From the IMG/VR virus record IMGVR_UViG_643692022_000004: DNA of 12,837 nucleotides; one strand, given 5' to 3'. Position numbers and translations under genes: made by a program. The DNA is from a virus (Duplodnaviria > Heunggongvirae > Uroviricota > Caudoviricetes). Positions 1 to 12,837 of the stretch are shown here, piece after piece (the stretch's first letter is position 1; every line of letters begins with the position of its first letter). The notes under the pieces were generated by a model. That model saw only the letters and a list, made by a program, of their open reading frames with translations, was not told the DNA's origin and ran no database searches.

Positions 1-243
1 TCACTCACTTACCAGCCAGAATTCCGCTTCTTCGAACATTTCCTGAACGACGGCACTTATCCGCTCTTTCTCATGTTTGCTGGCATCCGTGTTAATCGCT
101 GGCAGTGTCATCATCGGTTTAACCCGGACATCTGCATCCGGGAAGATCCGGTGCACTCTCTTACTCAGTTCATCTAAAATGATCTCTTTTGCACCAGGCA
201 GACCATCAAAATTCCTTTTGTCATAAACGAGTTCCACGAACAT
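1..243 (-). CDS. DinI-family DNA-damage-inducible protein (80 aa)
   Basis: Complete minus-strand ORF: ATG at 243-241, TGA at 3-1, AAGAGG-like RBS about 7 nt upstream. The C-terminal half (ELSKRVHRIFPDADVRV...KERISAVVQEMFEEAEFWLVSE) resembles E. coli DinI as I recall it (…ELSRRIQYAFPD…KQRISEILQETWESADDWFVSE). Two LexA-box-like palindromes lie immediately upstream. Confidence 0.7.
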   Translation of the reverse strand: MFVELVYDKRNFDGLPGAKEIILDELSKRVHRIFPDADVRVKPMMTLPAINTDASKHEKERISAVVQEMFEEAEFWLVSE

Positions 244-260
244 TGCGCATTGCCTCTTAA

Positions 261-300
261 CTGGACGTATATACAGTTTTTATACTGTATTTCTAACCAG
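261..300. promoter_or_regulatory. Tandem LexA (SOS) operator-like boxes upstream of the DinI-like gene
   Basis: CTGgacgtatataCAG (261-276) and CTGTatttctaaCCAG (285-300) both fit CTG-N10-CAG / CTGT-N8-ACAG. The second, in context TACTGTATTTCTAACCAGTA, closely resembles the dinI SOS box as I recall it. They sit 18-57 bp upstream of the ATG at 243. Confidence 0.6.
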
Positions 301-459
301 TATTCAAGATATGGCACTTCGCATCTACTATTCAGATGCACGCCTACATCATCAATGATGTGAGAACGGTAGAGCTTGAGGATTATATTTTTGTACGCAT
401 AAGCAGACTGAATTCGCAATACGCGGGTTCAGATTCTTGATAAATTGCGCATTGTTCCT

Positions 460-557
460 GCCGGATGCGGGGTAAATGTTTTGTTCGTTCTGAAATGTCA
501 ATAAAATACAATGCATTTCAGGAGGTTAGTCGGCCTGATAAGCGTAGCGCATCAGGC
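460..557. repeat. REP-like extragenic palindromic sequences
   Basis: GCCGGATGCGG (460-470) and the imperfect palindrome GGCCTGATAAGCGTAGCGCATCAGGC (532-557) match the enterobacterial REP/PU motif family from memory; no convincing ORF covers them. Confidence 0.45.
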
Positions 558-963
558 AATTTGCATTTGTCATCAGTCGCAATCCGCATTACATGGTTCT
601 TTATTGTCACTACTCAAATTCGCTGTCGCCATTTTGCCGCCACAGCCCAAGAAAAAGGCTACGCTTTCGCGTATCCATTTGATTTATTTTATGAGTGCGA
701 AATATCGTCAGCACACACTTCTATGGCTCTGTCTTTCTTTACATTCCACCTACGCTCGGCAACTAACAGAAAGTGTTGGTATTGGCCTCATGGGAATTTC
801 TCGCTGTTTTTTCTGATGTTCCAGAGGAGCGTCATTGCCATGAGTCGTCTCCATGCTTTTAGACCCAATGAAAACGATGGTTCTTTTCGTTGGGCCTGAC
901 AATGGGCTTAAAAAGTTCAGAATAAATTAGTTTGCTTGAGATTTTGCGAGACAAATTGAAGGC

Positions 964-984
964 ACAAAAAAGCCCGCAGGGCTT
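964..984 (-). terminator. Intrinsic-terminator-like hairpin, probable displaced ancestral ssrA terminator
   Basis: On the minus strand AGCCC-tgc-GGGCT is followed by a 6-T run (966-971). It is a near-identical copy of the hairpin just downstream of the ssrA 3' end at 12368-12386. Confidence 0.4.
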
Positions 985-1044
985 GCGCCATGCAGGCTTT
1001 CAGGACTTCATCGGATGGCTCTGGTAATCACCGATGGAGAATTT

Positions 1045-1066
1045 TGGTGGGCTGGCGGAGTTTGAA
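1045..1066. other. Distal attachment site (attL-like): degenerate direct repeat of the ssrA 3' end
   Basis: tggtgggctggcggagtttgaa versus the ssrA 3' terminus tggtggagctggcgggagttgaacc at 12436-12460 (shared blocks tggtgg / gctggcgg / agtt / gaa), in the same orientation and again adjacent to a copy of the terminator hairpin. Confidence 0.45.
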
Positions 1067-1119
1067 TAAATATTGTATTGCTTTGATTTTTAATGATTTT
1101 ATTTAATTCAGTTTTTATG

Positions 1120-1141
1120 CGTATACCTAATCGTATACCAA
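1120..1141. promoter_or_regulatory. Putative integrase arm-type binding sites (alpha-proximal arm)
   Basis: cgtatacct-aat-cgtataccaa; the same two motifs recur four times, in both orientations, at 12272-12323 next to int and the ssrA core. Confidence 0.35.
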
Positions 1142-1200
1142 TGGCTGTAAGTTAATGTGAAATGAAAGCGTATTTTTATTTGGATTGATGCTATATCGTA

Positions 1201-1500
1201 CAGGAAAAAATTTTTTTTCGAAAGAACTGTTCACACTGTTCACCCTTTGATTTTCTCCTTTTATTTCATAGTGATAGGTGGTGAATAATGGGTGAAGGGT
1301 GAACATTCGATTCTTCACCTCCGGCATTCTGCCGGTGTGACTCATACCGGTGATTAATCCCCCGTACTGAAAATCGCACAGGGAGAAAAAAGTTTTTTTT
1401 GATTTGATTGTTCACACTGTTCACCTTTCATTTTTCTCTTTTAATTTCAGTGTGATAACGGGTGAACATACGGTGAAGGGTGAACAGTGGATTGTTCACC
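1201..1500. repeat. crr-like cis replication region: two ~120-bp direct repeats carrying TGTTCACC-type octamer iterons
   Basis: Unit 1 (~1201-1320) and unit 2 (~1381-1500) each begin with an A-run/T-run and contain tgttcaca, tgttcacc and inverted ggtgaaca copies (e.g. 1228-1244, 1298-1305, 1409-1425, 1461-1468, 1479-1486, 1493-1500). TGTTCACC is the recalled binding octamer of the P4 alpha C-terminal domain. Confidence 0.7.
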
Positions 1501-1518
1501 TTCGGGGAATTCAGGGAT

Positions 1519-1543
1519 AAAAAAAGACCGGCAGATGCCGGTC
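1519..1543 (-). terminator. Rho-independent terminator of the leftward operon, just after alpha
   Basis: On the minus strand a 7-bp stem GACCGGC/GCCGGTC (1526-1532 / 1537-1543) with a 4-nt loop is followed by a 7-T run (1519-1525), 8 nt after the alpha stop codon at 1551-1553. Confidence 0.55.
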
Positions 1544-1550
1544 AGGTGGG

Positions 1551-3884
1551 TCAGGCTGTTGCAGGGTCGTCACATTTTGGCAGCCAGTCGCCGTAGCTTT
1601 CCTCTTTCAGTGTCAGGTTGGTCTGTATCCCCTGTTTGGTATGGCGCTTCTCGTAATTCAGTCCGTATTCCTTCAGCATCACCGGCAGCCCCAGCCCGAA
1701 CATTTTCAGACTGAGTACATTCCGGTAGCCGTTTGCCTCCATGTAGGCCAGATAGGCGTGATAGAGGTATTTACGGTAATTACGCGGGATGATACTGGCG
1801 TTCCCCATATACATGCCGCTGGTCTGCGGCAGGGTTTCCAGATAGCCGATAAAATCAAACGTCGGGTCGGCATCCCGTTTGATGTTCAGTGCCTCGTCTG
1901 AGTTCTGCTGGGACTGAAGCAGTGACCGGGCGAGCATCGGGTCGCTGAACTTCTGCATCAGGTGACGCACGATGACCGCCAGCTCGCGGGTGATTTTGTC
2001 CTTAAGCTGCGGGTCGCGCTCCTGCGGGGCTATCTGTTCCGGGAAGTGAATAATCACCCGCCGGCGTGACACGCCGCCGCTGCGGTCGGTGAAGCGCATC
2101 GGGTTATTGTTCACGGCCAGAATCACCGCCGGGATGTGCGTGGAGTACGCATCCCGGTATTTCGGGTCAACGGACACTGCATCGCCGCCGGTGATGGCCT
2201 TGAGTCCGGCTCCGTCGCCGCTCCATTTTTCCTGGTCCGGCAGGCGTATCAGTGAGAAGCCAGTTAACGCGGCACGTTCACGCGGGGATTCCAGCGTCTC
2301 AATGGTGGCCGACGTGGCGTTATCCTCACCGGCCAGCAGGGTGGCTATTTCGGCCATGATACTTTTGCCGCTGCCGCCGGGACCGGTCACCTCCAGAAAG
2401 AGCTGCCAGTCGTAGCGGTTTGCCAGCACCATAAACAGTGCGGCCAGAATCACGTCGCGTTTTTCCGCACGACCACCGGCAGCACGGTCAAGCCAGCGCC
2501 AGAACGCGGGAGCGTGGGTTTCCAGCGTTTCACCGTCCACCGGCGGGGTGAAATCCACATCACACAGGGTACGCATCCAGTGTGACGGACTGTGCGGGTG
2601 GAACGTACCGTTCTGCGTGTCGAGCACGCCGTTACGAAAGCCAATCAGGCGGCGGGAGGGGGCTTCCTGCTGCGGAATAATCAGCTTCAGGGTGTCCACC
2701 ACGGAGGCCACCTTCCCGGAGGAGAATGGCGCGCGCAGACGCTGAAACAGCCCGGCCACATCCCGGGCAAAGTCCTGTGGCGGCAGCACCTTCCAGACAC
2801 CATTTTCATAGCGGGACAGAAGCTGGCCGTTGGCATCGACCGCGAGCGCCTCGCCGTAATGCTCATAGATACGCATGGCCTTTTCGCTGGTACTCATGGC
2901 GGAAAACTCCGCTTCGCTCATGGTGTCGAACGGGCTTTCAGCCGGTGGCCGGATGGCATCATAAATGGCCTTACGGGTGGCCTCCCCGCCGTACTGCGTG
3001 AAGGCATCATTCCAGTCACCGAAGACCGGCGGCAGGGCAACAACACCTTCACACGCATCTGCGGCTGCGGCGGCTTTTTTCTGGCCGTCACCGCTGAGGT
3101 CACGGTCAGCGGCAAGGACAATCTGACAGGCGGGGTGCTTCTGCCGGGCAAGGCTGGCCAGAGAAAGGAGGTTCACGGAAGAAAGCGCCACCATCACCGT
3201 TTCACCGGTCAGGTGATGCACGGTAAGTGCGGTCGCGTATCCCTCCGCTATCCACAGACGTTTTCCGGCCTGATTCTGTCCTTCAAGGATGTGACAGGTG
3301 CCCCTGACCTGTCCGCCTTTCAGGGTGCGCTTACGGCCGTCAGCACTGATTAACTGAAGGTTAACCAGTTCGCCGCGGTCGTCATACAGTGGCACCACAA
3401 GGTCACCGGCGCGCCAGCTCACGCCACCGGCTCTGTGTGTGCCGGTCAGCATCCGGCATTCCCGGCCGGGAAAGCCCTTGCGGGTCAGGTAGGCGTTACC
3501 GGTTCCGGGACGGGTTTTCGCCATCAGGGTTTGTGCCAGTGCGGCGGCGTTCTTCCGGGCAGCGTCTGTTTCAGCAACAGCGGCGGTCGTCACTGCCGGG
3601 TCAGCCGGGGGCAGGCTGCCGGTCACGGCAGCCACCTTTGCGGCCGCATCGGACGGGGAAACACCAAACACCTTTTCAACCAGTTTCAGGCCGTCACCGG
3701 CACCACACTGATTGCAGTACCAGGTGCCGCGCCCCTCCCTGTCATCAAAACGGAAGCGGTCACTCCCGCCACAGACCGGACAGGGCTGATGACGGTTCTT
3801 CAGCACCTGAATCCCCAGCGCCGGGAGGATACGCGGCCAGTGGCCGAGTGCATGGCTGACGGTGGCGGTTACGTTCATTTTCAT
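1551..3884 (-). CDS. alpha: P4 alpha-type primase-helicase (777 aa)
   Basis: ATG at 3884 with AAGGAG RBS. N-terminal zinc-binding primase motif CPVCGGSDRFRFDDREGRGTWYCNQCG, Walker A VTGPGGSGKS of a D5/SF3-type helicase, and length matching the recalled 777 aa of P4 alpha. Flanked by its cognate octamer iterons. Confidence 0.95.
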   Translation of the reverse strand: MKMNVTATVSHALGHWPRILPALGIQVLKNRHQPCPVCGGSDRFRFDDREGRGTWYCNQCGAGDGLKLVEKVFGVSPSDAAAKVAAVTGSLPPADPAVTTAAVAETDAARKNAAALAQTLMAKTRPGTGNAYLTRKGFPGRECRMLTGTHRAGGVSWRAGDLVVPLYDDRGELVNLQLISADGRKRTLKGGQVRGTCHILEGQNQAGKRLWIAEGYATALTVHHLTGETVMVALSSVNLLSLASLARQKHPACQIVLAADRDLSGDGQKKAAAAADACEGVVALPPVFGDWNDAFTQYGGEATRKAIYDAIRPPAESPFDTMSEAEFSAMSTSEKAMRIYEHYGEALAVDANGQLLSRYENGVWKVLPPQDFARDVAGLFQRLRAPFSSGKVASVVDTLKLIIPQQEAPSRRLIGFRNGVLDTQNGTFHPHSPSHWMRTLCDVDFTPPVDGETLETHAPAFWRWLDRAAGGRAEKRDVILAALFMVLANRYDWQLFLEVTGPGGSGKSIMAEIATLLAGEDNATSATIETLESPRERAALTGFSLIRLPDQEKWSGDGAGLKAITGGDAVSVDPKYRDAYSTHIPAVILAVNNNPMRFTDRSGGVSRRRVIIHFPEQIAPQERDPQLKDKITRELAVIVRHLMQKFSDPMLARSLLQSQQNSDEALNIKRDADPTFDFIGYLETLPQTSGMYMGNASIIPRNYRKYLYHAYLAYMEANGYRNVLSLKMFGLGLPVMLKEYGLNYEKRHTKQGIQTNLTLKEESYGDWLPKCDDPATA

Positions 3885-3898
3885 GGTGTTGTTCTCCT

Positions 3899-4219
3899 TC
3901 AGTGCAGTACCGGCGCTTTTATGTGACGGGCACAGAGTTCATCCATCACAACCAGCCCGAGAAAGGACAGCGACGGCGCGGCCTTCAGGGGGCCGGATTC
4001 CATTAAATCTTCCAGCAGGGCACAGGCTATCTGACGCCCTTTTTCCTCACCGTGCTGGTGCAGATAAAAGCCTTCCAGCTCAGCGGCGATGGCCGCCTCC
4101 AGTGACTCAAGGGTGAGATGCGGGTAGCGGTGCTGACGTTCGCACACGGTCAGCCAGGCACAGGCGACAGCGCGACGGTAAAGGGCAGCGCGTAAGACGG
4201 GCGGTAAGGGGGTTTTCAT
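3899..4219 (-). CDS. P4 orf106-like hypothetical protein (106 aa)
   Basis: ORF of the length and position of P4 orf106, between orf151 and alpha; its stop (3899-3901) overlaps the alpha RBS. Function unknown. Confidence 0.7.
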
Positions 4220-4354
4220 TTGTTTTCCTCCCTGTGACAGATGACTGCATTCCGTGCCGGTTGCATTAACTGATAAGGCATATCTGCGTCTCCTGAAGAC
4301 GTGCGTATCCCTGCGCGAATACGCACATTTAATTTTTCGGGTGTCGTTTTTTAA

Positions 4355-4810
4355 TTACAGATAATTGCGGTAACTGTTATCCGGGGTGATTTCCGGGTCA
4401 GGCTCCGTGCGGGGAATTTCCCGCCATTCCCGCGCCACCGGTGCCGCCCGGCTGACCGGAACAGGGTCCTGCGGGTAAATATCCAGATATTTCTCCCGCC
4501 ATTTCTGTAATTCCGGGTCTCCGGCCATTTCTTTCAGTACCGCATGCCGGTTTACGGGGCTGCGTTTAAACAGGTCAGGACGGTCACAGGTAAATTCCCG
4601 CAGAAAACGCCCCAGCGGGATGTCTGTGGTGCGCCCGTCAGCGAGGATACGCACAAGGATACTGAATTTACGGCGGTACGGGTTCCAGACAATGTCCGGG
4701 CAGCGGTACGGCATTTCCCACGGAATACCGTCTTCCAGAATGCCGACCACGGCCACATCGGGAAAACCGGCAGAACGGTAAATCTCACCAGGCTGGGGAA
4801 AATCAAACAT
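4355..4810 (-). CDS. P4 orf151-like hypothetical protein (151 aa)
   Basis: ORF of the length and position of P4 orf151; its ATG (4810-4808) overlaps the epsilon stop (4803-4805), suggesting translational coupling. Confidence 0.7.
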   Translation of the reverse strand: MFDFPQPGEIYRSAGFPDVAVVGILEDGIPWEMPYRCPDIVWNPYRRKFSILVRILADGRTTDIPLGRFLREFTCDRPDLFKRSPVNRHAVLKEMAGDPELQKWREKYLDIYPQDPVPVSRAAPVAREWREIPRTEPDPEITPDNSYRNYL

Positions 4811-5090
4811 GCGTCCTGTCTCCCCGGTCTTTCTGCTGGGCGAGAAAATCGCGGCACAGGCCTTTGGCTTTCAGCTCATTCAGCACAAAATCAATATCTT
4901 CATTCAGGTAGCTGAAAATATGCGGAATGTAGAGCTGATGCAGGCCGGAGAGTTCACGGTGAATCAAATCACCCCCAACAAACTGGGATACGGCGCTGGC
5001 GCGGTTGAGCTTATGGTAAGCCTCAATGCTGAGGTGTTCACGGGCGTCATGACGCGCTGAGACGGTCTGAGGGGCTTTTTTATTACGCAC
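4803..5090 (-). CDS. epsilon: Epsilon-like protein (95 aa; P4 anti-repressor that derepresses the helper prophage)
   Basis: Position immediately downstream of the immunity region and upstream of orf151/alpha, as in P4. The start appears to be GTG (5090-5088) preceded by a G-rich RBS. Identity rests on synteny and size, not on a recalled sequence. Confidence 0.6.
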
Positions 5091-5283
5091 GGGACACCCC
5101 CATCACTGGCAGACGGGCAGCAAGGGAGAGCACATAGTCACGGACAAGGGAACGGCGGGCGCTGCGTTCATCACCGGCGACGGTGCGAAGCATGCAGATA
5201 CGGGGATGACGGTCTGCGCGACGGACAGCCGCAAACACAAAGACAAATTCAGGGTGTGAAGGGGTAAGGGTTGTAGCCATGAT

Positions 5284-5402
5284 GGCAGCCTCCGTTAGAT
5301 AGCAGGTTACGCTATCGCCGGAGTTTCCACGCTCGATGGCGATAGCCCAGACGGGGGTGGAAATACCGGCTCTAACGGATACCGGCCAGCCCGGAGGCTG
5401 CC
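5284..5402 (-). ncRNA. Candidate CI-like immunity RNA (structured RNA in the P4 immunity region)
   Basis: Perfect 11-bp long-range inverted repeat ggcagcctccg (5284-5294) / cggaggctgcc (5392-5402) enclosing a perfect 9-bp hairpin gctatcgcc (5311-5319) / ggcgatagc (5338-5346). The locus lies between vis and epsilon where P4 encodes the CI RNA. Exact ends are uncertain. Confidence 0.3.
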
Positions 5403-5528
5403 CCGCCTGAGCTACCATTGACTCTGCGGCATAATGAGCGGACGCGGGCAGGATGCACGGAGTGCCATCTGCTCGACTGACCACACACCACACCATAATC
5501 TGGCGCTCTGTGGCGTTGATTGCGACAC

Positions 5529-5550
5529 AAAAAAAGACGCATGGCGCGTC
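5529..5550 (-). terminator. Candidate attenuator/terminator hairpin in the leader between the early promoter and the CI-like RNA
   Basis: On the minus strand the stem GACGC/GCGTC (5546-5550 / 5536-5540) with loop GCCAT is followed by a 7-T run (5529-5535). The stem is short, so the call is weak. Confidence 0.35.
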
Positions 5551-5613
5551 ATATGTCGCCGTTAGATTGCTCGGGTTTCCACGCCCGGCTGCCGATTTTG
5601 CGACAGCGGAAAA

Positions 5614-5643
5614 ACTATATCCGCAAATGCCGGAAAAAGGCAA
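5614..5643 (-). promoter_or_regulatory. Candidate sigma70 promoter (PLE-like) downstream of vis
   Basis: On the minus strand TTGCCT (5643-5638), an 18-bp spacer, then TATAGT (5619-5614), directed toward the immunity region and epsilon. Hexamer match by eye only. Confidence 0.25.
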
Positions 5644-5678
5644 GCCAGAAAAAGGGAGTTTTTGCAGAGCGGGCATCA

Positions 5679-5945
5679 TCATGCGTCGTACCCCCGTTTG
5701 CGTCCGGCAATGCGCCCGGCCATCCATGCGGTGACTTCAGAGTGCAGCCAGGCCACATTTTTACCGCCAAGACTCACCTGCGGCGGAAATTCCCCCTTAC
5801 GGATGAGTTCATAGATGGTCGAGCGTGACAGGCCGCACAGGTGCATCACTTCCGGAAGACGTAAAAAACGCTCCTGTGTGATGTCCGGCAGCGGCATCAG
5901 TGGCGTCACAGGGGCGGGAGACGGGGAAGAAAAAACAGCTTGCAT
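5679..5945 (-). CDS. vis: Vis-like excisionase/transcriptional regulator (88 aa; AlpA/Xis-type helix-turn-helix)
   Basis: 88-aa ORF with a GAGG RBS. Contains the AlpA/Vis-type motif [45 protein letters not shown]. Same size and position as P4 orf88 (vis) between the late promoter region and the immunity region. Confidence 0.8.
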
Positions 5946-6090
5946 CGGGCTACCTCGTTAATGTCCATACAGCACCGGATAAGTCCGTCCGGCTTCGGGT
6001 AGCGCTTTATTTTGTGAATATTTTCAGCAGACGCAACAGGGGGGATTTGTTCCGGCAGCCTTACAATGCTTGTGTATTTTTTGTTCATCT

Positions 6091-6120
6091 CCACTTAAAG
6101 TCATTTAAAGCCACTTAAAG
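6091..6120. promoter_or_regulatory. Three phased 10-bp direct repeats upstream of vis (candidate Vis/PLL operator)
   Basis: ccacttaaag / tcatttaaag / ccacttaaag are exactly contiguous with 10-bp periodicity, about 150 bp upstream of the vis start codon. Confidence 0.3.
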
Positions 6121-6224
6121 CAATTCGTAATTTTTATAGTGAAATACAAATCGTTTTTTCTTATTCATTCCCGGCGAATTAATAAAAACAAACAGTAATA
6201 AACAGCACAAAAAGCCCATCAACG

Positions 6225-6328
6225 GGTGAACAGTGGTGAACAGACGGTGAACAGTCATTACTGCGATTGTTCACCCTTTAACTTACTGTATTACTTATCT
6301 TTTTTCTTATGGTGAACAGAGGTGAACA
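6225..6328. repeat. ori-like replication origin: cluster of six GGTGAACA/TGTTCACC octamer iterons
   Basis: ggtgaaca at 6225-6232, 6235-6242, 6246-6253, 6311-6318, 6321-6328 and tgttcacc at 6268-6275, followed by an A/T-rich stretch (6331-6350). Same octamer as in crr, and located between vis and sid as in P4. Confidence 0.65.
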
Positions 6329-6408
6329 GTAAAATATAAAAAAAATAAACAGTAAGCCGTTTTTTCCAGCGACCTTTTCCTGGCTTGCCGGTGTGAGGAT
6401 GAGTCTCC

Positions 6409-6426
6409 TGTGTCAGGGCTGGCACA
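6409..6426 (+). promoter_or_regulatory. Psid-type late promoter activator site (TGT-N12-ACA dyad for Delta/Ogr-family activators)
   Basis: TGTgtcagggctggcACA, centred roughly 80 bp upstream of the sid ATG, consistent with the recalled P2/P4 late-promoter architecture (dyad centred near -55). Confidence 0.5.
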
Positions 6427-6498
6427 TCTGCAATGCGTCGTGTTGTTGTCCGGTGTACGTCACAATTTTCTCAACCTGAAGTGACGAGGAGCCGGAAA

Positions 6499-7233
6499 AT
6501 GTCTGACAACACCATCCCTGAATATCTGCAACCCGCACTGGCACAACTGGAAAAGGCCAGAGCCGCCCACCTTGAGAACGCCCGACTGATGGATGAGACC
6601 GTCACGGCCATTGAACGGGCAGAGCAGGAAAAAAATGCGCTGGCGCAGGCCGACGGAAACGACGCTGACGACTGGCGCACGGCCTTTCGTGCAGCCGGTG
6701 GTGTCCTGAGCGACGAGCTGAAACAGCGCCACATTGAGCGCGTGGCACGCCGGGAGCTGGTACAGGAATATGACAATCTGGCCGTGGTGCTGAATTTCGA
6801 ACGTGAACGCCTGAAAGGGGCGTGTGACAGCACGGCCACCGCCTACCGGAAGGCACATCATCACCTTCTGAGTCTGTATGCAGAGCATGAGCTGGAACAC
6901 GCCCTGAATGAAACCTGTGAGGCGCTTGTCCGGGCAATGCATCTGAGCATTCTGGTACAGGAAAATCCGCTCGCCAACACCACCGGCCATCAGGGCTACG
7001 TCGCACCGGAAAAGGCTGTCATGCAGCAGGTGAAATCATCGCTGGAACAGAAAATTAAACAGATGCAAATCAGCCTCACCGGCGAGCCGGTTCTCCGGCT
7101 GACCGGACTGTCAGCGGCAACACTTCCTCACATGGATTATGAGGTGGCAGGCACACCGGCACAGCGCAAGGTGTGGCAGGACAAAATAGACCAGCAGGGA
7201 GCAGTGCTTAAGGCCAGAGGACTGCTGTCATGA
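6499..7233 (+). CDS. sid: Sid-like capsid size determination (external scaffold) protein (244 aa)
   Basis: ATG at 6499 preceded by AGGAG (6486-6490); the track ORF begins 66 nt further upstream but lacks an RBS. The product starts MSDNTIPEYL and is 244 aa, the recalled length of P4 Sid. First gene of the sid-delta-psu operon. Confidence 0.85.
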   Translation: MSDNTIPEYLQPALAQLEKARAAHLENARLMDETVTAIERAEQEKNALAQADGNDADDWRTAFRAAGGVLSDELKQRHIERVARRELVQEYDNLAVVLNFERERLKGACDSTATAYRKAHHHLLSLYAEHELEHALNETCEALVRAMHLSILVQENPLANTTGHQGYVAPEKAVMQQVKSSLEQKIKQMQISLTGEPVLRLTGLSAATLPHMDYEVAGTPAQRKVWQDKIDQQGAVLKARGLLS

Positions 7234-7730
7234 TTTACTGCCCGTCGTGTGGACATGTTGCTCACACCCGCCGCGCACATTTCATGGACGATGGCACCAA
7301 GATAATGATTGCACAGTGCCGGAATATTTATTGCTCTGCGACATTTGAAGCGAGTGAAAGCTTTTTCTCTGACAGTAAAGATTCAGGAATGGAATACATT
7401 TCAGGCAAACAGAGATACCGCGATTCACTGACGTCAGCCTCCGGCAGTATGAAACGCCCGAAAAGAATGCTTGTTACCGGATATTGTTGTCGGAGATGTA
7501 AAGGCCTTGCACTGTCAAGAACATCGCGGCGTCTGTCTCAGGAAGTCACCGAGCGTTTTTATGTGTGCACGGATCCGGGCTGTGGTCTGGTGTTTAAAAC
7601 GCTTCAGACCATCAACCGCTTCATTGTCCGCCCGGTCACGCCGGACGAACTGGCAGAAATCCTGCATGAAAAACAGGAACTGCCGCCAGTACGCTTAAAA
7701 ACACAATCATATTCGCTGCGTCTGGAATGA
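7230..7730 (+). CDS. delta: Delta-like late transcriptional activator (166 aa, tandem Ogr-type zinc-finger domains)
   Basis: Start overlaps the sid stop (ATGA at 7230-7233). Two Cys4 modules: CPSCGH...CRNIYC and CRRCKG...CTDPGC. Length equals the recalled 166 aa of P4 Delta. Confidence 0.9.
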   Translation: MIYCPSCGHVAHTRRAHFMDDGTKIMIAQCRNIYCSATFEASESFFSDSKDSGMEYISGKQRYRDSLTSASGSMKRPKRMLVTGYCCRRCKGLALSRTSRRLSQEVTERFYVCTDPGCGLVFKTLQTINRFIVRPVTPDELAEILHEKQELPPVRLKTQSYSLRLE

Positions 7731-7803
7731 GGGCTGCCGGTTAACACCGGCCGTCGCCGCACACCGTATTTTTATTCTTCACCATGATGAGAAAGAGATA
7801 ACG

Positions 7804-8376
7804 ATGGAAAGCACAGCCTTACAGCAGGCCTTTGACACCTGTCAGAATAACAAAGCAGCATGGCTGCAACGCAAAAATGAGCTGGCTGCGGCCGAACAGG
7901 AATATCTGCGGCTTCTGTCCGGGGAAGGCAGAAACGTCAGTCGCCTGGACGAATTACGCAATATTATCGAAGTCAGAAAATGGCAGGTGAATCAGGCTGC
8001 CGGTCGTTATATTCGTTCGCATGAAGCCGTTCAGCACATCAGCATCCGCGACCGGCTGAATGATTTTATGCAGCAGCACGGCACAGCACTGGCGGCCACA
8101 CTGGCACCGGAGCTGATGGGCTACAGTGAGCTGACGGCCATTGCCCGAAACTGTGCCATACAGCGTGCCACAGATGCCCTGCGTGAAGCCCTTCTGTCCT
8201 GGCTTGCGAAGGGGGAAAAAATTAATTATTCCGCACAGGATAGCGACATTTTAACGACCATCGGATTCAGGCCTGACGCGGCTTCGGTGGATGACAGCCG
8301 TGAAAAATTCACTCCTGCGCAGAACATGATTTTTTCGCGTAAAAGTGCGCAACTGGCATCACATCAGTCTGTGTAA
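7804..8376 (+). CDS. psu: Psu-like polarity suppression / capsid decoration protein (190 aa)
   Basis: 190-aa ORF starting MESTALQQAFDTCQNN, matching my recollection of P4 Psu in sequence start and length; last gene before cos. Confidence 0.9.
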   Translation: MESTALQQAFDTCQNNKAAWLQRKNELAAAEQEYLRLLSGEGRNVSRLDELRNIIEVRKWQVNQAAGRYIRSHEAVQHISIRDRLNDFMQQHGTALAATLAPELMGYSELTAIARNCAIQRATDALREALLSWLAKGEKINYSAQDSDILTTIGFRPDAASVDDSREKFTPAQNMIFSRKSAQLASHQSV

Positions 8377-8411
8377 AACTCCCCGAAAATCCGCCCGTTT
8401 TTACTGAAAAA

Positions 8412-8450
8412 AGCCATGCATCGATAAGGTGCATGGCTTTGCATGCGTTT
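8412..8450 (+). terminator. Candidate terminator of the late operon
   Basis: 8-bp stem AGCCATGC/GCATGGCT (8412-8419 / 8431-8438) followed by a T-containing tail (ttgcatgcgtttt), about 35 nt after the psu stop. Confidence 0.4.
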
Positions 8451-8540
8451 TCCTGCCTCATTTTCTGCAAACCGCGCCATTCCCGGCGCGGTCTGAGCGT
8501 GTCAGTGCAACTGCATTAAAACCGCCCCGCAAAGCGGGCG

Positions 8541-8559
8541 GGCGAGGCGGGGAAAGCAC
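8541..8559. other. cos site (P2/P4-type 19-nt cohesive end)
   Basis: GGCGAGGCGGGGAAAGCAC matches the P2/P4 cohesive-end sequence as I recall it; preceded by a GC-rich hairpin CCGCCCCGC-aaa-GCGGGCGG (8522-8543). Confidence 0.65.
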
Positions 8560-8575
8560 TGCGCGCTTAAGTATA

Positions 8576-11026
8576 TTATTGTTTTGCACTTAAAATATTA
8601 TCAACAACTCGTTTCACACTTTCGAAAGATGACTCTCCTGTTTTAAAAGATTCGTTCATGTCAAAATAACTAGGTTTATTTACAAAACTACTCCAAGCAT
8701 TTGACAGGTAATCTTTGAATGCAATGGAGCGTTTATATCGATCCTCAATATTGAATGACTCACATGAAGCTCGCATATTATTGACTACTTCAGGATTAAA
8801 TATAGGAGTGTCAAATACCATTGCATCAAGATAGGCGAAATCACTTATCCATCGCTTGAGATGATACAAACCAATAGATGTGATTCTAAATTTCGTTGGC
8901 ATTTCTCCTATTAAACCTGTTTCGTCCTCTTCAAATGTAAACCTCTGTGAGGTCTCTATTAATTTTTTGTTTGTCGTTCTTCTTAGCGCATTTTCAGTCT
9001 GCTCAGGAATAAAACCAAGGCTTTGCATTTCATCTATAATGGACTTGGTTAGACAGAATCCATCCCGGTCCTGAAGCTCTTTTTTTTCTGATAATAGCGC
9101 CATTATTAATGGTACTAAAAAGTGTTCTGATATATCTGCAAAAGAAACATCAAAAATATTCATGGCAAGAGATGTGTTTGGATCAAAGTGTGAATATTCA
9201 CCAAGTAAAGCTTGTTTAGAAAATTCATGTACAGGAATTATATATCTACCTTCTTCTTCGTAAGTTCGAATTATTTTATCCGCTTCAACATTTGGGCTGC
9301 CTATAAAACCAGTAATAAAGCTAAGCGCTTGTCTTACATTGCCTCCCGTAATGTTTTCAATAAACTCTCCTAGTGATTTATTTTTTCTTAGAGATTGAAG
9401 CAATACTCTGATAAATGAAGAAAGATTGTCTATATGGATTCTAACAAATTCGGCATGTTCAAGAGGTATCTTTCCTTCAGACATTTCGAGAGCAAACTGA
9501 AGTCGTTTATCAAGAACTTGATCTATCCTTGGTGGTGCAATTGTAAAGACCTTGTGGGGATAAGCAGTTAATGCACCTGATGCTTTTGATTTAAAGAATG
9601 TCTGAGGTCTGACAGATATAAATACTAAAGCATTCCAATCTTTTGCTAACTCCTGAGAAATAACAAATGCTCGCTGTTGCGTTTCGAAATCTCGTTGATC
9701 AGCATTATCTAGACAAATAATTACTTGCTTTTTAGTTTGTTTTGATAAATGAGCGATTGAGTTTTTTAAATGTTCATCTTTAGCATCTAATTTTTCCGCC
9801 AACATCTCAAGTTGTTTTTCCTCATATCGTTCTCTATTTGAATCTCGTAAACTCCCCCAGATTCCTTTTGAAAACCTTTGAATATCTCTTGAATATACGC
9901 CTTTAACAAATTTCATTTCGGTTATATCACAGGAGTATTTATTGTCTAGTTGTTGCTCTATCTCATTTAATATAAATTTTTGAAGATTATTAGCTAATGT
10001 TGCTTTAGAGCCTAAATCTATATATAAATAAATTGCCTCTTTAAATTCTTTGAATGCACTTGAATAAATTAAATTTTTTACAAATGACGTTTTACCAACA
10101 CCAACATCACCAATTAATACAATTGGACGCTTTGATAGAGCCTCGGCCATAATACTTGGATCTAAAGTTTGCTCTTTACGATCAGGTTTAACAGAAGTTA
10201 TATGTGGAGATAATTCATTGTCACTAAATAGAGCAGCATATCTGGCTTGAAGCATTTCTTTACTTAGCAAAGCATATTTTGAAAGGGCACCACTTTCGCA
10301 GTAGCATTTTTGGTAAAAAATCTCTTCAATTTCATTGCTTTCAAGAGCATCTTGAATTATTAATTCTGATATTTGTCTTAATGAGGTCTGTATATCACTA
10401 GCATAGCGTATTTTAGGATACATTGATAAATAGGTTGATAATTTATTTGGAATACCACTTATGTCAGAGGTAAGATACTTAATTAAACGTTGTTCTTTCA
10501 CACCGTAATATGAAAGCATATTCCATGCTAAAGAAAAGTTCCGTAATAAAGAATCCAAACTGTCAAAAACTAAAGCTTTTCCCTCTAAAGGCGAACAGCC
10601 ATTTTGAGTGCTTGCAATAAATGATATAAATTGATGTCCATTAGTGGCTATTGCAATTGGTGTTCCTCGTGATGAACAATATTTTTGTACCTGTATAATT
10701 GCGTCTTTTAAATCGTCATTTGATCTTAAGAGAGTTGGTATGTCGATTATGTTCTTATTTGATAAACCTGCTGGTATTTCAAAAGTCCGGCCTTCTCTTT
10801 TCGCTTCAACAATAACTTGCCGTGGCTTTCCTAATTCATAATCTGTAAAAGTATGATCATGATAGTTTTCAACTTCTATTTGATCATCAGGCCAGCTAAG
10901 AACGTCAATAATTATTTTGTTTATTATATGATGCCTAGTCTGGGCTTCATTTCTTATCTTGGCGCTGTCACTATATTCGTTTACTAATTCTCTTAATAAA
11001 TTTTCGGCTTGTATCATTGTAACCAT
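8576..11026 (-). CDS. Candidate anti-phage defence protein: N-terminal PD-(D/E)xK nuclease (HsdR-N/Mrr-like) fused to a P-loop NTPase with a C-terminal domain of unknown function (816 aa)
   Basis: Uninterrupted 816-codon ORF, ATG at 11026 with GGAGAG RBS 7 nt upstream. Residues ~26-76: NEAQTRHHIINKII...IEVE...DYEL...VIVEAKREG, the E/D/ExK pattern of HsdR-N/Mrr-type nucleases. Walker A GDVGVGKTS (~306-314), extended Walker B VIICLDNADQ (~435-444), and GGNVRQAL (~561-568) resembling an AAA+/STAND sensor motif. No SF2 helicase motifs. Sits in the P4 psu/cos-int slot; strongly AT-rich against a GC-rich backbone. Confidence 0.85.
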   Translation of the reverse strand: MVTMIQAENLLRELVNEYSDSAKIRNEAQTRHHIINKIIIDVLSWPDDQIEVENYHDHTFTDYELGKPRQVIVEAKREGRTFEIPAGLSNKNIIDIPTLLRSNDDLKDAIIQVQKYCSSRGTPIAIATNGHQFISFIASTQNGCSPLEGKALVFDSLDSLLRNFSLAWNMLSYYGVKEQRLIKYLTSDISGIPNKLSTYLSMYPKIRYASDIQTSLRQISELIIQDALESNEIEEIFYQKCYCESGALSKYALLSKEMLQARYAALFSDNELSPHITSVKPDRKEQTLDPSIMAEALSKRPIVLIGDVGVGKTSFVKNLIYSSAFKEFKEAIYLYIDLGSKATLANNLQKFILNEIEQQLDNKYSCDITEMKFVKGVYSRDIQRFSKGIWGSLRDSNRERYEEKQLEMLAEKLDAKDEHLKNSIAHLSKQTKKQVIICLDNADQRDFETQQRAFVISQELAKDWNALVFISVRPQTFFKSKASGALTAYPHKVFTIAPPRIDQVLDKRLQFALEMSEGKIPLEHAEFVRIHIDNLSSFIRVLLQSLRKNKSLGEFIENITGGNVRQALSFITGFIGSPNVEADKIIRTYEEEGRYIIPVHEFSKQALLGEYSHFDPNTSLAMNIFDVSFADISEHFLVPLIMALLSEKKELQDRDGFCLTKSIIDEMQSLGFIPEQTENALRRTTNKKLIETSQRFTFEEDETGLIGEMPTKFRITSIGLYHLKRWISDFAYLDAMVFDTPIFNPEVVNNMRASCESFNIEDRYKRSIAFKDYLSNAWSSFVNKPSYFDMNESFKTGESSFESVKRVVDNILSAKQ

Positions 11027-11049
11027 CGAAAACTCTCCAAATGAAAAAA

Positions 11050-12249
11050 TTAAAAGGATAAAGATTTATGAACAAAAGAACTCCACCAGTTCATTAAATT
11101 CTTCCTTTGTTCTAAGTAAGTAGAACGGTTATAAGCTTTTCTGACTTCATTCTTATCGCTATGAGCTAAGGCTGATTCTATTACATCAGCGTTAAATTCG
11201 GCTTCATTCATTGCAGTGCTGGCAATAGAACGTAAACCATGAGCAACGAGTTTTCCACCATATCCTATCCTTTTTAAAGCGGCATTTGCAGTTTGGCTAT
11301 TCATGGGTTTTTGTGGATCATTTCTACTTGGGAAAACATACTCACGATGAGCACTAATAGTTTTCATAACTTCAAGAATATCTAAAGCCTTAGGTGATAA
11401 AGGTACAATATGTTCGCGCTTAGCTTTCATCCTTTCAGCAGGAATTCTCCAGAGTTTTGCATCAAAATCGATCTCCTTCCATTGAGTGCCTGAAGCCTCT
11501 GAAGGGCGCACAAGGGTGAGTAGTTGCCATTCAATCAGACAACGGGTCTGCACAGAAAGATTTGACATAGATAAAGAATACATAAGTTTCGGTAATTCTT
11601 CAGGTCGTAGTGTTGGCATGTTTTTCTTTTTAGGTTTCTCAAATGCCATACCAATACCTGATGCAGGATTAGCGTCAATTAAGCCAGTATTAACGGCATA
11701 AATCATAATTTCATTAATACGTTGTACCAAACGACGAACAGTTTCAAGTGCTCCACGAGCTTTAATTGGTTCTAAGGTTTCAATTAATGTACGAGCTTTT
11801 ATTTTCTGAACAGGAATTTCACCGATAGTAGGGAAAATATCTCTCTCTAAGGAGCGCCATACATCCTTTGCGTAATCAGGTGTTACGTTGTTTCTTTTTA
11901 TGGCAAACCATTTTGAGGCAACGTTTGAAAAAATACTATCTTCCGCAATCTGTTGCTGTACAGTGACTTGCTCACTGTATATCTGTGGATCAATACCTCG
12001 GGCCAGCAAGGAAAGATACTCAGCACGAGTGTTTCTGGCTTCAGCCAGAGAAAGGGCAGGGAAAGACCCTAAACCAATCATGGTTCGTTGTTTTGTTACT
12101 GGTTTCTGGTATCGGAAACGCCACAGCTTCCTACCGTTCGTTTTTACGAGTAGAAAAAGTCCATTACCATCATGTAGCGTTAGATCCTTTGCAGTTGCTT
12201 TAGCCCGTGATAGTTCAGTGTTAGTAAGAGGGCGTGTTGTACGTGACAC
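11050..12249 (-). CDS. int: Tyrosine integrase (P4-family, 399 aa), ssrA-specific
   Basis: N-terminus typical of P4-family integrases (...RPLTNTELSRAKA...LHDGNGLFLLVKTNGRKLWRFRY...), C-terminal catalytic region with HGLR and a tyrosine in KAYNRSTY. Apparent GTG start at 12249 with a GAGGT RBS. Directly adjacent to the ssrA 3' end. Confidence 0.9.
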   Translation of the reverse strand: MSRTTRPLTNTELSRAKATAKDLTLHDGNGLFLLVKTNGRKLWRFRYQKPVTKQRTMIGLGSFPALSLAEARNTRAEYLSLLARGIDPQIYSEQVTVQQQIAEDSIFSNVASKWFAIKRNNVTPDYAKDVWRSLERDIFPTIGEIPVQKIKARTLIETLEPIKARGALETVRRLVQRINEIMIYAVNTGLIDANPASGIGMAFEKPKKKNMPTLRPEELPKLMYSLSMSNLSVQTRCLIEWQLLTLVRPSEASGTQWKEIDFDAKLWRIPAERMKAKREHIVPLSPKALDILEVMKTISAHREYVFPSRNDPQKPMNSQTANAALKRIGYGGKLVAHGLRSIASTAMNEAEFNADVIESALAHSDKNEVRKAYNRSTYLEQRKNLMNWWSSFVHKSLSF

Positions 12250-12271
12250 GATTATCCTACCTCAGAGAGAA

Positions 12272-12323
12272 TTGGTATACGCTTTTAGGTATACATCTTA
12301 CCGTATACCTAAACGTATACCAA
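12272..12323. promoter_or_regulatory. Cluster of four arm-type integrase-binding-like repeats between int and the att core
   Basis: ttggtatacg (12272-12281), aggtatac (12287-12294), cgtatacct (12302-12310), cgtataccaa (12314-12323): two motifs in inverted then direct orientation, and the same pair recurs at 1120-1141. Overlaps the expected int promoter. Confidence 0.4.
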
Positions 12324-12367
12324 TAATCACTGGATTTAGCGGGATATTCTCGGACAACTGCGGACAC

Positions 12368-12386
12368 AAAAAAGCCCACAGGGCTT
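12368..12386 (-). terminator. Rho-independent terminator downstream of ssrA, supplied by the element
   Basis: On the minus strand AGCCC-tgt-GGGCT is followed by a 6-T run (12368-12373), about 50 nt beyond the tmRNA 3' CCA end. Confidence 0.5.
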
Positions 12387-12435
12387 GTGCCATGCGGGCT
12401 TTCAGGATTTTTCCGGACATATCCGGAAGAGCAAG

Positions 12436-12798
12436 TGGTGGAGCTGGCGGGAGTTGAACCCGCGTCCGAAATTCCTACATCCTCGGTACTACATGCTTAG
12501 TCAGTCTTTACATTCGCTTGCCAGCTGCGGACGGACACGCCACTAACAAACTAGCCTGATTAAGTTTTAACGCTTCAACCCCAGGCAGGGCTTCCACGCG
12601 ATCTCTTTTGGGTTTGACCTCTCTTGATCCCCGTCCTAAGAGCGGAGGCTAGGGAGAGAGGGCTCTAAGCAGGTTATTAAGCTGCTAAAGCGTAGTTTTC
12701 GTCGTTTGCGACTATTTTTTGCGGCTTTTTACGAGGCCAACCGCCCCTCGGCATGCACCTTGGGTTTCGCAAATCCCGTCGAATCCAGAATCAGCCCC
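12436..12798 (-). ncRNA. ssrA: tmRNA (transfer-messenger RNA)
   Basis: Reverse complement begins GGGGCTGATTCTGGATTCGACGGG and ends ...GGTTCAACTCCCGCCAGCTCCACCA; contains the tag reading frame GCAAACGACGAAAACTACGCTTTAGCAGCTTAA (ANDENYALAA). 363 nt, matching E. coli ssrA as recalled. Confidence 0.95.
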
Positions 12799-12837
12799 AA
12801 TGTGTAACAGTAAGTATACCAGATTTATGAGCGCCAT

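Follow-up and report, generated by a model that had tools for sequence, protein, structure and literature searches.

An apparently complete P4-type satellite prophage at the ssrA 3' end of Escherichia fergusonii, with an exchanged integrase and a putative anti-phage payload

The window analysed here (the whole stretch of DNA, 12,837 nucleotides) is 100% identical to Escherichia fergusonii ATCC 35469 (CU928158.2) and holds what, taken as a whole, is very probably a complete P4-type satellite prophage at the 3' end of ssrA, with swapped integrase and attachment sites and a putative 816-aa anti-phage payload. The prophage of this strain is apparently complete, and none of the sequence matches to P4, to tmRNA or at the att ends is at chance level. 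Counting one att core, the element measures 11,391 bp, 98% of the size of P4, and it is bracketed by the terminal ~15-22 nt of ssrA (attL, 12436-12458; attR, 1045-1066). The homology of nine related prophages, whose outer flanks differ, stops at window positions 1044-1048; the ends proposed in the first-pass annotation (1045-12460) coincide with these breaks and with the att repeats. A 144-aa ORF at 465-899 was set aside as spurious: it belongs to no family, no gene is called there in the source genome, and it has no homologs in the fetched loci apart from the source genome itself.

The P4 backbone

Window positions 1205-8540 align in a single piece with bases 4291-11624 of P4 (NC_001609) at 98.1% nucleotide identity, and all the backbone proteins are full length, with 92.8-99.4% amino-acid identity to P4 (98.2-99.4% for alpha, sid, delta, psu, epsilon, vis, orf106 and orf151). 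Judged by its sequence, the backbone is P4 proper, beyond merely P4-like. The first-pass annotation had proposed a close match to P4 in gene order and in gene sizes (alpha 777, sid 244, delta 166, psu 190 and vis 88 aa); order and sizes are as claimed, and the whole-backbone alignment contradicts an only distant relationship. The features are the following.

1204-1505, plus strand: crr (cis-required replication region), two ~120-bp direct repeats (family D1), homologous to the annotated P4 crr (4291-4590)
1551-3884, minus strand: alpha primase-helicase, 777 aa, 99.4% amino-acid identity to P4 alpha
3899-4219, minus strand: orf106 (DUF5375), 99.1% identity to P4 ORF106
4355-4810, minus strand: orf151, 98.7% identity to P4 ORF151; we take it to be cnr, the copy-number control gene
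4803-5090, minus strand: epsilon (helper derepression), 95 aa, 98.9% identity to P4 epsilon
5083-5727, minus strand: immunity-region ORF (P4 'orf137'/ash), 92.8% identity to the P4 137-aa product over 5086-5499
5335-5422, minus strand: CI immunity RNA (C4 antisense RNA), Rfam RF01695, 76.2 bits, full length
5530-5607, minus strand: isrK-type sRNA, P4 immunity leader, Rfam RF01394, 72.5 bits
5679-5945, minus strand: vis/orf88 (AlpA-type excisionase/regulator), 88 aa, 98.9% identity to P4 ORF88
6000-6432, unstranded: ori region (approximate), colinear with the P4 rep_origin start at 9086; repeat families D3 and D5; GC 0.40
6499-7233, plus strand: sid capsid-size scaffold, 244 aa, 99.2% identity to P4 Sid
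7230-7730, plus strand: delta late-gene activator, 166 aa, 98.2% identity to P4 Delta
7804-8376, plus strand: psu polarity suppression/capsid decoration, 190 aa, 98.4% identity to P4 Psu

The ori region carries TGTTCACC/GGTGAACA-type repeats, which it has in common with crr. A mechanical ORF call for sid starts at an upstream ATG and gives 266 aa, versus the 244 aa listed. In the annotation of relatives, the immunity-region ORF at 5083-5727 (minus strand) is described as Icd-like.

Among the features by which a P4-like satellite is recognised, alpha, ori and crr are all present, as are the full-length sid, delta, psu and epsilon (98.2-99.2% identity to P4) and the CI RNA together with vis/AlpA; a 399-aa Int adjoins att, the 11,391 bp lie within the size range of about 10-12 kb, and the predicted cos site would be compatible with a P2-type terminase. 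Canonical P4 (NC_001609) is also characterised by its own int/attP and by gop-beta-cII, which the element lacks.

The exchanged segment and its junctions

P4 bases 27-4290, which hold gop, beta, cII, int and attP, have given way to some 4 kb of low-GC DNA (GC 0.33 in the cargo and 0.40 in int, against 0.55 in the backbone), comprising a P4-family integrase with its own arm repeats, an ssrA-derived core, a substitute terminator for ssrA and a single 816-aa gene.

1045-1066, unstranded: attR core, a degenerate copy of the ssrA 3' end, TGGTGG-GCTGGCGG-AGTTTGAA; compared directly with attL over 9 related prophages
1113-1142, plus strand: candidate arm-type Int-binding repeats on the attR side, CGTATACC twice, from a repeat search; putative function
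8512-8567, unstranded: cos core common to P2 and P4, 56 bp, from a base-by-base comparison with the P4 and P2 ends
8576-11026, minus strand: cargo gene, 816 aa, nuclease, ATPase, winged helix and helical C-terminus
11050-12249, minus strand: ssrA-specific P4-family tyrosine integrase, 399 aa, Pfam Arm-DNA-bind_3, Phage_int_M and Phage_integrase, NCBIfam PRK09692 (583 bits)
12274-12321, unstranded: candidate arm-type Int-binding repeats on the attL side, CGTATACC, from a repeat search; putative function
12356-12417, minus strand: terminator-like hairpin supplied by the element, immediately after the reconstituted 3' end of ssrA (site 12386-12372, then a T run)
12436-12458, unstranded: attL core (3'-terminal ssrA nucleotides), 15 nt exactly matching the attR of relatives, with partial similarity on to 12458
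12436-12798, minus strand: ssrA (tmRNA), the integration target, ARAGORN and Rfam (295.8 bits), full length and intact

The first-pass annotation had the cos-int module replaced, which holds for int, attP and gop-beta-cII; cos itself is retained, and the junction of the swap falls at 8567/8568, immediately past the cos core. The 19-nt cohesive end GGCGAGGCGGGGAAAGCAC is found exactly at 8541-8559, and P4 bases 1-26, which hold it, correspond to window positions 8541-8566. To the left of the nick cos is identical to P4, and to its right 27 nt are identical to P2; the core differs from that of P2 by 2 nt in the hairpin loop, where the window agrees with P4. The cargo stop codon lies 9 nt from the end of the cos homology.

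At the other end, the 36% identity between the element's Int and P4 Int bears out the claim that this is not the canonical P4 integrase, and the full-length tmRNA, which encodes the tag ANDENYALAA, together with the ssrA-derived att core confirms integration at ssrA. TGGTGG(A)GCTGGCGG is common to attL and attR, and attR is without the base matching tmRNA U357; because two 1-nt indels distinguish the attR core from that of attL, we can only infer the exact crossover point. All five exact copies of CGTATACC in the window lie within the two att arms, while with one mismatch allowed there are 15 matches against 5.3 expected. The terminator-like region at 12356-12417 is an 82% repeat of the flank at 954-1015. 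Integration would proceed by recombination, catalysed by Int, of attP with the terminal ~15-22 nt of ssrA; the displaced 3' end would be supplied by the element, and the tmRNA would therefore stay functional. For capsid, tail and terminase the element would draw on a P2-like helper, whose capsid Sid would reduce to suit a genome that has kept the size of P4.

The same attR arm is found in P4-like satellites at ssrA, with other cargos, in 306 of 5426 complete E. coli genomes (about 5.6%), and it is 95-99% identical in 291 E. coli genomes. One such satellite, that of E. coli ES5 (NZ_CM184343.1), is arranged as ssrA-int-SIR2/ATPase-cos-psu...alpha; its alpha is 99.1% identical to that of the element and its Int 84.6%, and the nucleotide identity of int runs in a gradient from 84-95% in the 5' half and the arm to 56-79% in the 3' half. 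The cargo and the int allele, each at at least 99%, occur in only two of the 5426 complete E. coli genomes, and these are the same two. In Pectobacterium, a region colinear with window 8598-12823 at 73% is followed, after the cargo, by a diverged cos-like site, and homology to the backbone is absent. Such comparisons suggest that the 3' half of int and the cargo behave as a linked block, which is also present at ssrA in Pectobacterium, on a different P4-like backbone.

Two other readings of the element as a whole were weighed. That int and cargo form a separate small ssrA island abutting an int-less P4 fragment, in a tandem array, is scarcely credible: ssrA does host such arrays, as shown by a second integrase just outside attR in SC467 and by one E. 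coli genome in which a prophage and a DarTG island separate ssrA from the element, and Klebsiella has the int-cargo block without a P4 backbone; nevertheless, no internal att copy separates cargo from cos, the cargo stop nearly touches the cos core, exactly 11.39 kb are bracketed by the att repeats, the arm recurs across the E. coli genomes counted above, and the order ssrA-int-cargo-cos-psu is constant in 10 of 10 inspected loci with the exact cargo protein (from nine assemblies, three of the copies being truncated). A cryptic remnant like CP4-57, no longer mobilisable and kept only for its cargo, is also quite improbable. Decayed forms do occur at this site: the version in E. coli CH4799 and in two draft genomes is reduced to ssrA-int-cargo-cos-psu and a truncated delta, and Klebsiella retains a truncated int with the cargo; moreover, attR is imperfect here. 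Against this, every P4 gene here has its full length (93-99% identity), the element retains crr, ori, cos and the CI RNA, and in size it is close to P4.

The 816-aa cargo gene

The cargo is unrelated to gop-beta-cII, and gop, beta and cII gave no match anywhere in the window, in agreement with the first-pass annotation. Its N-terminus is a PD-(D/E)xK nuclease (residues D62, E74 and K76), which provides the N-terminal effector domain expected of Avs/bNACHT proteins, and it is followed by a Cdc6/STAND-like P-loop ATPase (Walker A 306-314, Walker B 439-443). In the structure model the nuclease is BpuSI/HsdR-like and the ATPase Cdc6/STAND-like, and a winged helix is present; its structural matches to AAA+ proteins of replication initiation and transposition equal those to NLRs in score. 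The C-terminal region is short, modelled as the winged helix plus short helical bundles, and no repeat family that could form a C-terminal sensor (TPR, LRR, WD40) was found with Pfam even at E<=10. PADLOC v2 returned only mad8 (E 2.5e-4, over the P-loop), Pfam searches with the separate N- and C-terminal parts yielded nothing beyond a sub-threshold HSDR_N_2 match, no NCBIfam family was assigned, and a sequence-profile search of the PDB gave nothing usable.

The family is single-gene and widespread, with over a thousand homologs across many phyla (Proteobacteria, Bacteroidota, Actinomycetota, Planctomycetota and others). No conserved partner gene was found, the best neighbour cluster being a histidine kinase in 7 of 80 loci. 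Distant homologs have mainly housekeeping genes and few defence genes as immediate neighbours, and a scan of 135 neighbours turned up no more than isolated integrases, resolvases, Mrr and type I S subunits; a 'mad2' signal of 6 matches was dropped, as the matches could not be traced to one cluster. An integrase is linked to the cargo gene in Pectobacterium, Klebsiella and Congregibacter, but such linkage as a family-wide rule was rejected, since an Int homolog lies just upstream in none of the 64 distant loci with enough upstream DNA; the Congregibacter integrase beside a cargo homolog is unrelated to the element's Int (26%).

With somewhat less than even probability, the cargo is a functional, unusually compact NLR-like nuclease without a repeat sensor, belonging to a candidate single-gene, multi-phylum antiviral family and travelling in Enterobacterales, from one P4-like backbone to another, as a block with the catalytic half of int. 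In the main reading of the element, the 816-aa protein would be the satellite's anti-phage payload, in which the NLR-like/STAND ATPase would sense infection, oligomerise and unleash the N-terminal PD-(D/E)xK nuclease. An NTP-dependent restriction-type endonuclease (fused McrBC/type IV-like) acting directly on foreign or modified DNA, or a function in maintenance or addiction of the element, seems unlikely, although the N-terminal domain resembles BpuSI and HsdR nucleases, with the weak HSDR_N_2 match, and a homolog is annotated in one source as a predicted type IV restriction endonuclease/GTPase. The modelled winged helix and the Cdc6/ORC-, TnsC- and MuB-like ATPases may likewise suggest DNA binding, and in Enterobacterales the cargo is tightly linked to int. 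On the other hand, no conserved methyltransferase or partner gene adjoins the cargo, the linkage to int is gone outside Enterobacterales (no upstream integrase in the 64 loci), and the HHpred assignment given in Rousset 2022 is NB-ARC/NACHT. We found no tests of the 816-aa protein's function in the literature, and Rousset et al. 2022 does not include the protein among the systems evaluated for defence. If the cargo protects against phage, a compact NLR-like nuclease would be added to the known defence repertoire.

Relation to known systems

The modular exchange of int and payload on a conserved chassis, put forward in the first-pass annotation, is supported; it is not novel, because ssrA P4-like satellites with many cargos are common and because the hotspot, the integrase exchange and the cargo have been published. 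The psu/cos-int defence hotspot, with more than 300 arrangements, was described by Rousset 2022, and the exchange of integrases among P4-like satellites by de Sousa and Rocha 2021; both the int-plus-payload swap and the exact cargo protein are already known from published work. System 64 of Table S1 in Rousset 2022 ('BpuSI_N/NB-ARC/NACHT', 12 loci), under which accession WP_000258270 is listed, is the same protein as the cargo, matching it in the N-terminal ~180 residues and in residues ~255-400; no difference appears at the protein level, and the system is a catalogue entry only. The element illustrates an established pattern, in which the P4 chassis is near-invariant and recombination at the cos-proximal hotspot swaps payload and integrase sequence. 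It places two junctions precisely, at the cos core end and inside int, and is itself a clean, intact host element for a nuclease-ATPase gene already catalogued from the hotspot.

The cargo resembles Avs/AVAST and bNACHT proteins in its tripartite build (N-terminal effector nuclease, central P-loop NTPase with helical/winged-helix modules, C-terminal region) and in being a single gene of patchy distribution on mobile elements; it differs from characterised Avs in its short C-terminus with no recognisable repeat sensor.

With CP4-57 of E. coli K-12 the element shares a P4-family integrase aimed at the ssrA 3' end and an outer att copy without tmRNA U357, so that the tmRNA can be defective after excision. 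As an island CP4-57 is large, decayed and devoid of the P4 hijack genes; the element, by contrast, carries a complete P4 backbone. P4 itself (NC_001609 / X51522) integrates at the leuX tRNA-Leu gene; from crr to the cos core the two are 98% identical in nucleotides, with a shared gene order and near-equal genome size, but here bases 27-4290 are replaced, the payload is one 816-aa gene, Int is divergent and the att core derives from ssrA. The E. coli ssrA satellites, as in ES5, share the site, the attR arm, the gene order and a 98% backbone, and differ in their cargo, which in ES5 is SIR2 plus an ATPase, and in the 3' half of int.

P4-like backbone and the limits of the replaced block

A search of phage records with megablast aligned P4 (NC_001609/X51522) 4291-11624 with window 1205-8540 in a single unbroken alignment of 98.1% identity, and sensitive blastn matched window 8541-8566 to P4 1-26. 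The P4-architecture satellite described in the first-pass annotation is thus confirmed in full: the backbone is that of P4 proper, not a distant relative, all its proteins are full length, and the ORF sizes to the left of ssrA are as that annotation listed them. The element measures 11,391 bp with one core counted, versus 11,624 bp for P4.

Features of the element (window positions)
1045-1066: attR core, TGGTGG-GCTGGCGG-AGTTTGAA, from comparison of the two ends
1059-1204: attR arm, GC 0.31
1205-8566: P4-like backbone, GC 0.55
5335-5422: P4 immunity RNA (C4 family), Rfam
5530-5607: isrK-type RNA, Rfam
8576-11026, minus strand: cargo, 816-aa nuclease-ATPase, GC 0.33
11050-12249, minus strand: int, 399-aa ssrA-type P4-family integrase, GC 0.40
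12436-12458: attL core, TGGTGGAGCTGGCGGGAGTTGAA, the last nucleotides of ssrA, from comparison of the two ends
12436-12798, minus strand: ssrA, full-length tmRNA gene (ARAGORN, tag ANDENYALAA; Rfam, 295.8 bits)

Identity of backbone proteins to P4 (tblastn with the annotated P4 proteins; every match full length and gap-free)
Alpha: 99.4%
Orf106: 99.1%
Orf151: 98.7%
Epsilon: 98.9%
137-aa immunity-region ORF: 92.8%
Vis/Orf88: 98.9%
Sid: 99.2%
Delta: 98.2%
Psu: 98.4%

The least conserved of these is the immunity-region ORF, whose frame (5083-5727, minus strand) encodes 214 aa from the first ATG, whereas the P4 reference gives the product as 137 aa; in relatives it is annotated as 184-199-aa "Icd-like"/Phage_ASH products.

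The P4 proteins Gop, Beta and cII had no tblastn match in the window, where, as previously proposed, an unrelated cargo takes their place, and the integrase is not the canonical one, being only 36% identical to P4 Int. On the cos side the window equals P4 up to the nick, with an exact 19-nt cohesive end, and equals P2 for 27 nt beyond the cohesive-end start; it diverges from both at 8567/8568, 9 nt from the cargo stop codon, so the 56-bp core common to P2 and P4 (8512-8567) has been retained. The replacement of a "cos-int module" therefore applies to the whole stretch between attP and a point just past cos, but not to the cos core itself. At the opposite junction P4 homology starts exactly at the first repeat of crr, the cis-required replication region (window 1205, P4 4291). 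The imported block is marked by its GC content. Within the cos core there is a GC-rich inverted repeat (8522-8541, minus strand) followed by TTTTAATGCA, terminator-like by scan score, which could end the cargo transcript 35 nt past the stop codon.

Origin of the int-cargo block and nature of the cargo

The 146-bp attR arm, which is absent from P4, was found in 306 of 5426 complete E. coli genomes, nearly always at 95-99% identity, and in a whole-window search these genomes match the backbone and ssrA but not the cargo. Strain ES5, for instance, has the order smpB-ssrA-int-SIR2-ATPase-cos-psu-delta-sid-...-alpha-ypjA, with alpha 99.1% and Int 84.6% identical to those of the window. Other annotations under the whole-window match include NACHT and hypothetical proteins. 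The window's cargo is present in only two of the 5426 genomes, the same two, and no others, that carry the int allele at 99% identity or more, while about 390 other E. coli genomes have int at about 77% nucleotide identity. Compared with other E. coli ssrA-type P4-like satellites, int (window 11027-12426) is a mosaic: its 3' (catalytic) half, on the cargo side, shows 56-79% nucleotide identity, and its 5' half with the attL arm 84-95%, a gradient that suggests a hotspot-exchange breakpoint inside the gene.

A Pectobacterium locus is colinear with window 8598-12823 (cargo, int and ssrA) at 73% and shows no homology to the window backbone, which argues that the int-cargo block predates its joining with the P4-proper backbone. 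After the cargo homolog it has a diverged cos-like sequence and an Ogr/Delta remnant. The cos-like sequence (L016, 10446-10540; GCGCGCAGTTCTCCCCGCCTGCCCGCTT...GGTTTTGATGCAT) follows directly with the spacing of the window, and the exact E. coli cos 19-mer was not found in this locus even at 3 mismatches. From these comparisons the block appears to have entered whole, one breakpoint lying at cos and the second within int or past it. In Klebsiella quasipneumoniae (L014, 1-10448) a truncated int (259 aa) and a cargo homolog (84% identical) adjoin a Hachiman-like pair (HamA and DEAD helicase) and another helicase, with the P4 backbone absent; this looks like a decayed block within a defence island.

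The cargo has a borderline AAA_22 Pfam match and sub-threshold NACHT, nSTAND3 and AAA_16 matches around residues 298-450, no NCBIfam match, and no PADLOC match except a weak P-loop one, to mad8. In 24 homologs, down to 51% identity, D62...E74-A-K76 (the PD-(D/E)xK signature), GDVGVGKTS (306-314, Walker A) and LDNAD (439-443, Walker B) are invariant. The structure model matches Cdc6/ORC (up to 11.4), TnsC (10.9), CED-4 (9.5), plant and animal NLRs (8.4-9.2), MarR-type winged helices (8.9), and BrxC and RdrA (8.7), and its N-terminus the nuclease domains of BpuSI and HsdR (9.3, 9.2); Foldseek returned Cdc6, NRC3, RdrA, MalT and Avs4.

More than 1100 homologs exist, all unnamed or generically named, and a genome scan found relatives of 36-59% identity in Gamma-, Beta-, Alpha- and Deltaproteobacteria, Bacteroidota, Streptomyces, Planctomycetota, Nitrospirota and Acidobacteriota. 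Across 80 loci homologs have no conserved neighbour, and none of 64 loci outside Enterobacterales has an integrase upstream; the genes directly beside the homologs are chiefly housekeeping ones, plus a few integrases, resolvases and restriction genes. PADLOC mad2 was matched by 6 of 135 neighbouring proteins (L018-L097; best E 2e-45), which could not be assigned to a single sequence cluster, and mad5 by 2. Judging from its architecture, its patchy distribution and where it sits in the P4 hotspot, the cargo is most likely an NLR-like sensor-nuclease that acts against phage as a single protein.

The ssrA target and published precedents

Integration at ssrA, as first annotated, is borne out by the att core, which is the 3' end of the full-length tmRNA gene. 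Exact look-up of the cargo protein gave 10 loci in 9 assemblies, one of which (CU928158.2, Escherichia fergusonii ATCC 35469) is 100% identical over the whole window. In all 9 related E. coli prophages homology ends at 1044-1048, and their outer flanks differ (second integrase, ypjA autotransporter, EcoRII system, csiD, others). The inner part of attR (AGTTTGAATAAAT...) is invariant among elements and the outer part (TGGTGG[A]) follows the host flank, so that we place the crossover, probably, in or near GCTGGCGG. All five exact window copies of CGTATACC lie in the two arms (1120-1139 and 12274-12321) and are good candidates for arm-type Int sites. The ssrA-side arm carries a terminator-like hairpin followed by a T run (12386-12372, minus strand), so the element restores the predicted terminator of ssrA as well as its 3' end.

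Outside attR, window 1-1044 resembles what an earlier ssrA occupant would leave behind: a terminator-like stretch (954-1015) shares 82% identity with positions 12356-12417 in the arm of the element itself, 870-1058 shares 85% with the att region of Klebsiella phages that integrate at ssrA (ST437-OXA245phi4.1), and a DinI-like gene lies at 1-243 (minus strand). No integrase is present in 1-1044, and a 144-aa ORF (465-899) is probably spurious. In 4935 of 5426 E. coli genomes, parts of the left flank (1-1100) occur at several places per genome (median 3, maximum 12) with 60-90% identity, which points to short repeats that are dispersed or to phage-end sequences that are conserved.

The tmRNA base U357 forms the G-U wobble of the acceptor stem. 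The attR copy of the ssrA 3' end (1045-1058 versus 12436-12450) has no equivalent base; E. coli relatives SC467 and L013 keep it, and L004 and L012 show further deletions. A crossover in GCTGGCGG would mean that ssrA loses U357 on excision (delta-U357), the same lesion as that reported on excision of CP4-57 in E. coli K-12 (PMC10107115) and of CP4So in Shewanella (PMC5148205). P4-family integrases that use ssrA go back to the description of CP4-57 (Kirby et al. 1994), CP4So being another case.

Rousset et al. 2022 (PMC9122126) described, for P4-like satellites, a hotspot that lies between psu/cos and int and abuts cos, with more than 300 arrangements among 5,251 loci; the cargo protein, WP_000258270, is in their Table S1 and not in their Table S2 of evaluated systems. 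NAR 2026 gkag898 reports new single-gene systems, one of them an ATPase/KAP P-loop named Reve. P4-like integrases are often exchanged, their tree being discordant with other core genes (De Sousa and Rocha 2021, PMC8628076). Both the initial observation and its interpretation as modular exchange of integration specificity and payload are right, and the element, which has already been catalogued, is an ordinary case within a class that is well described.
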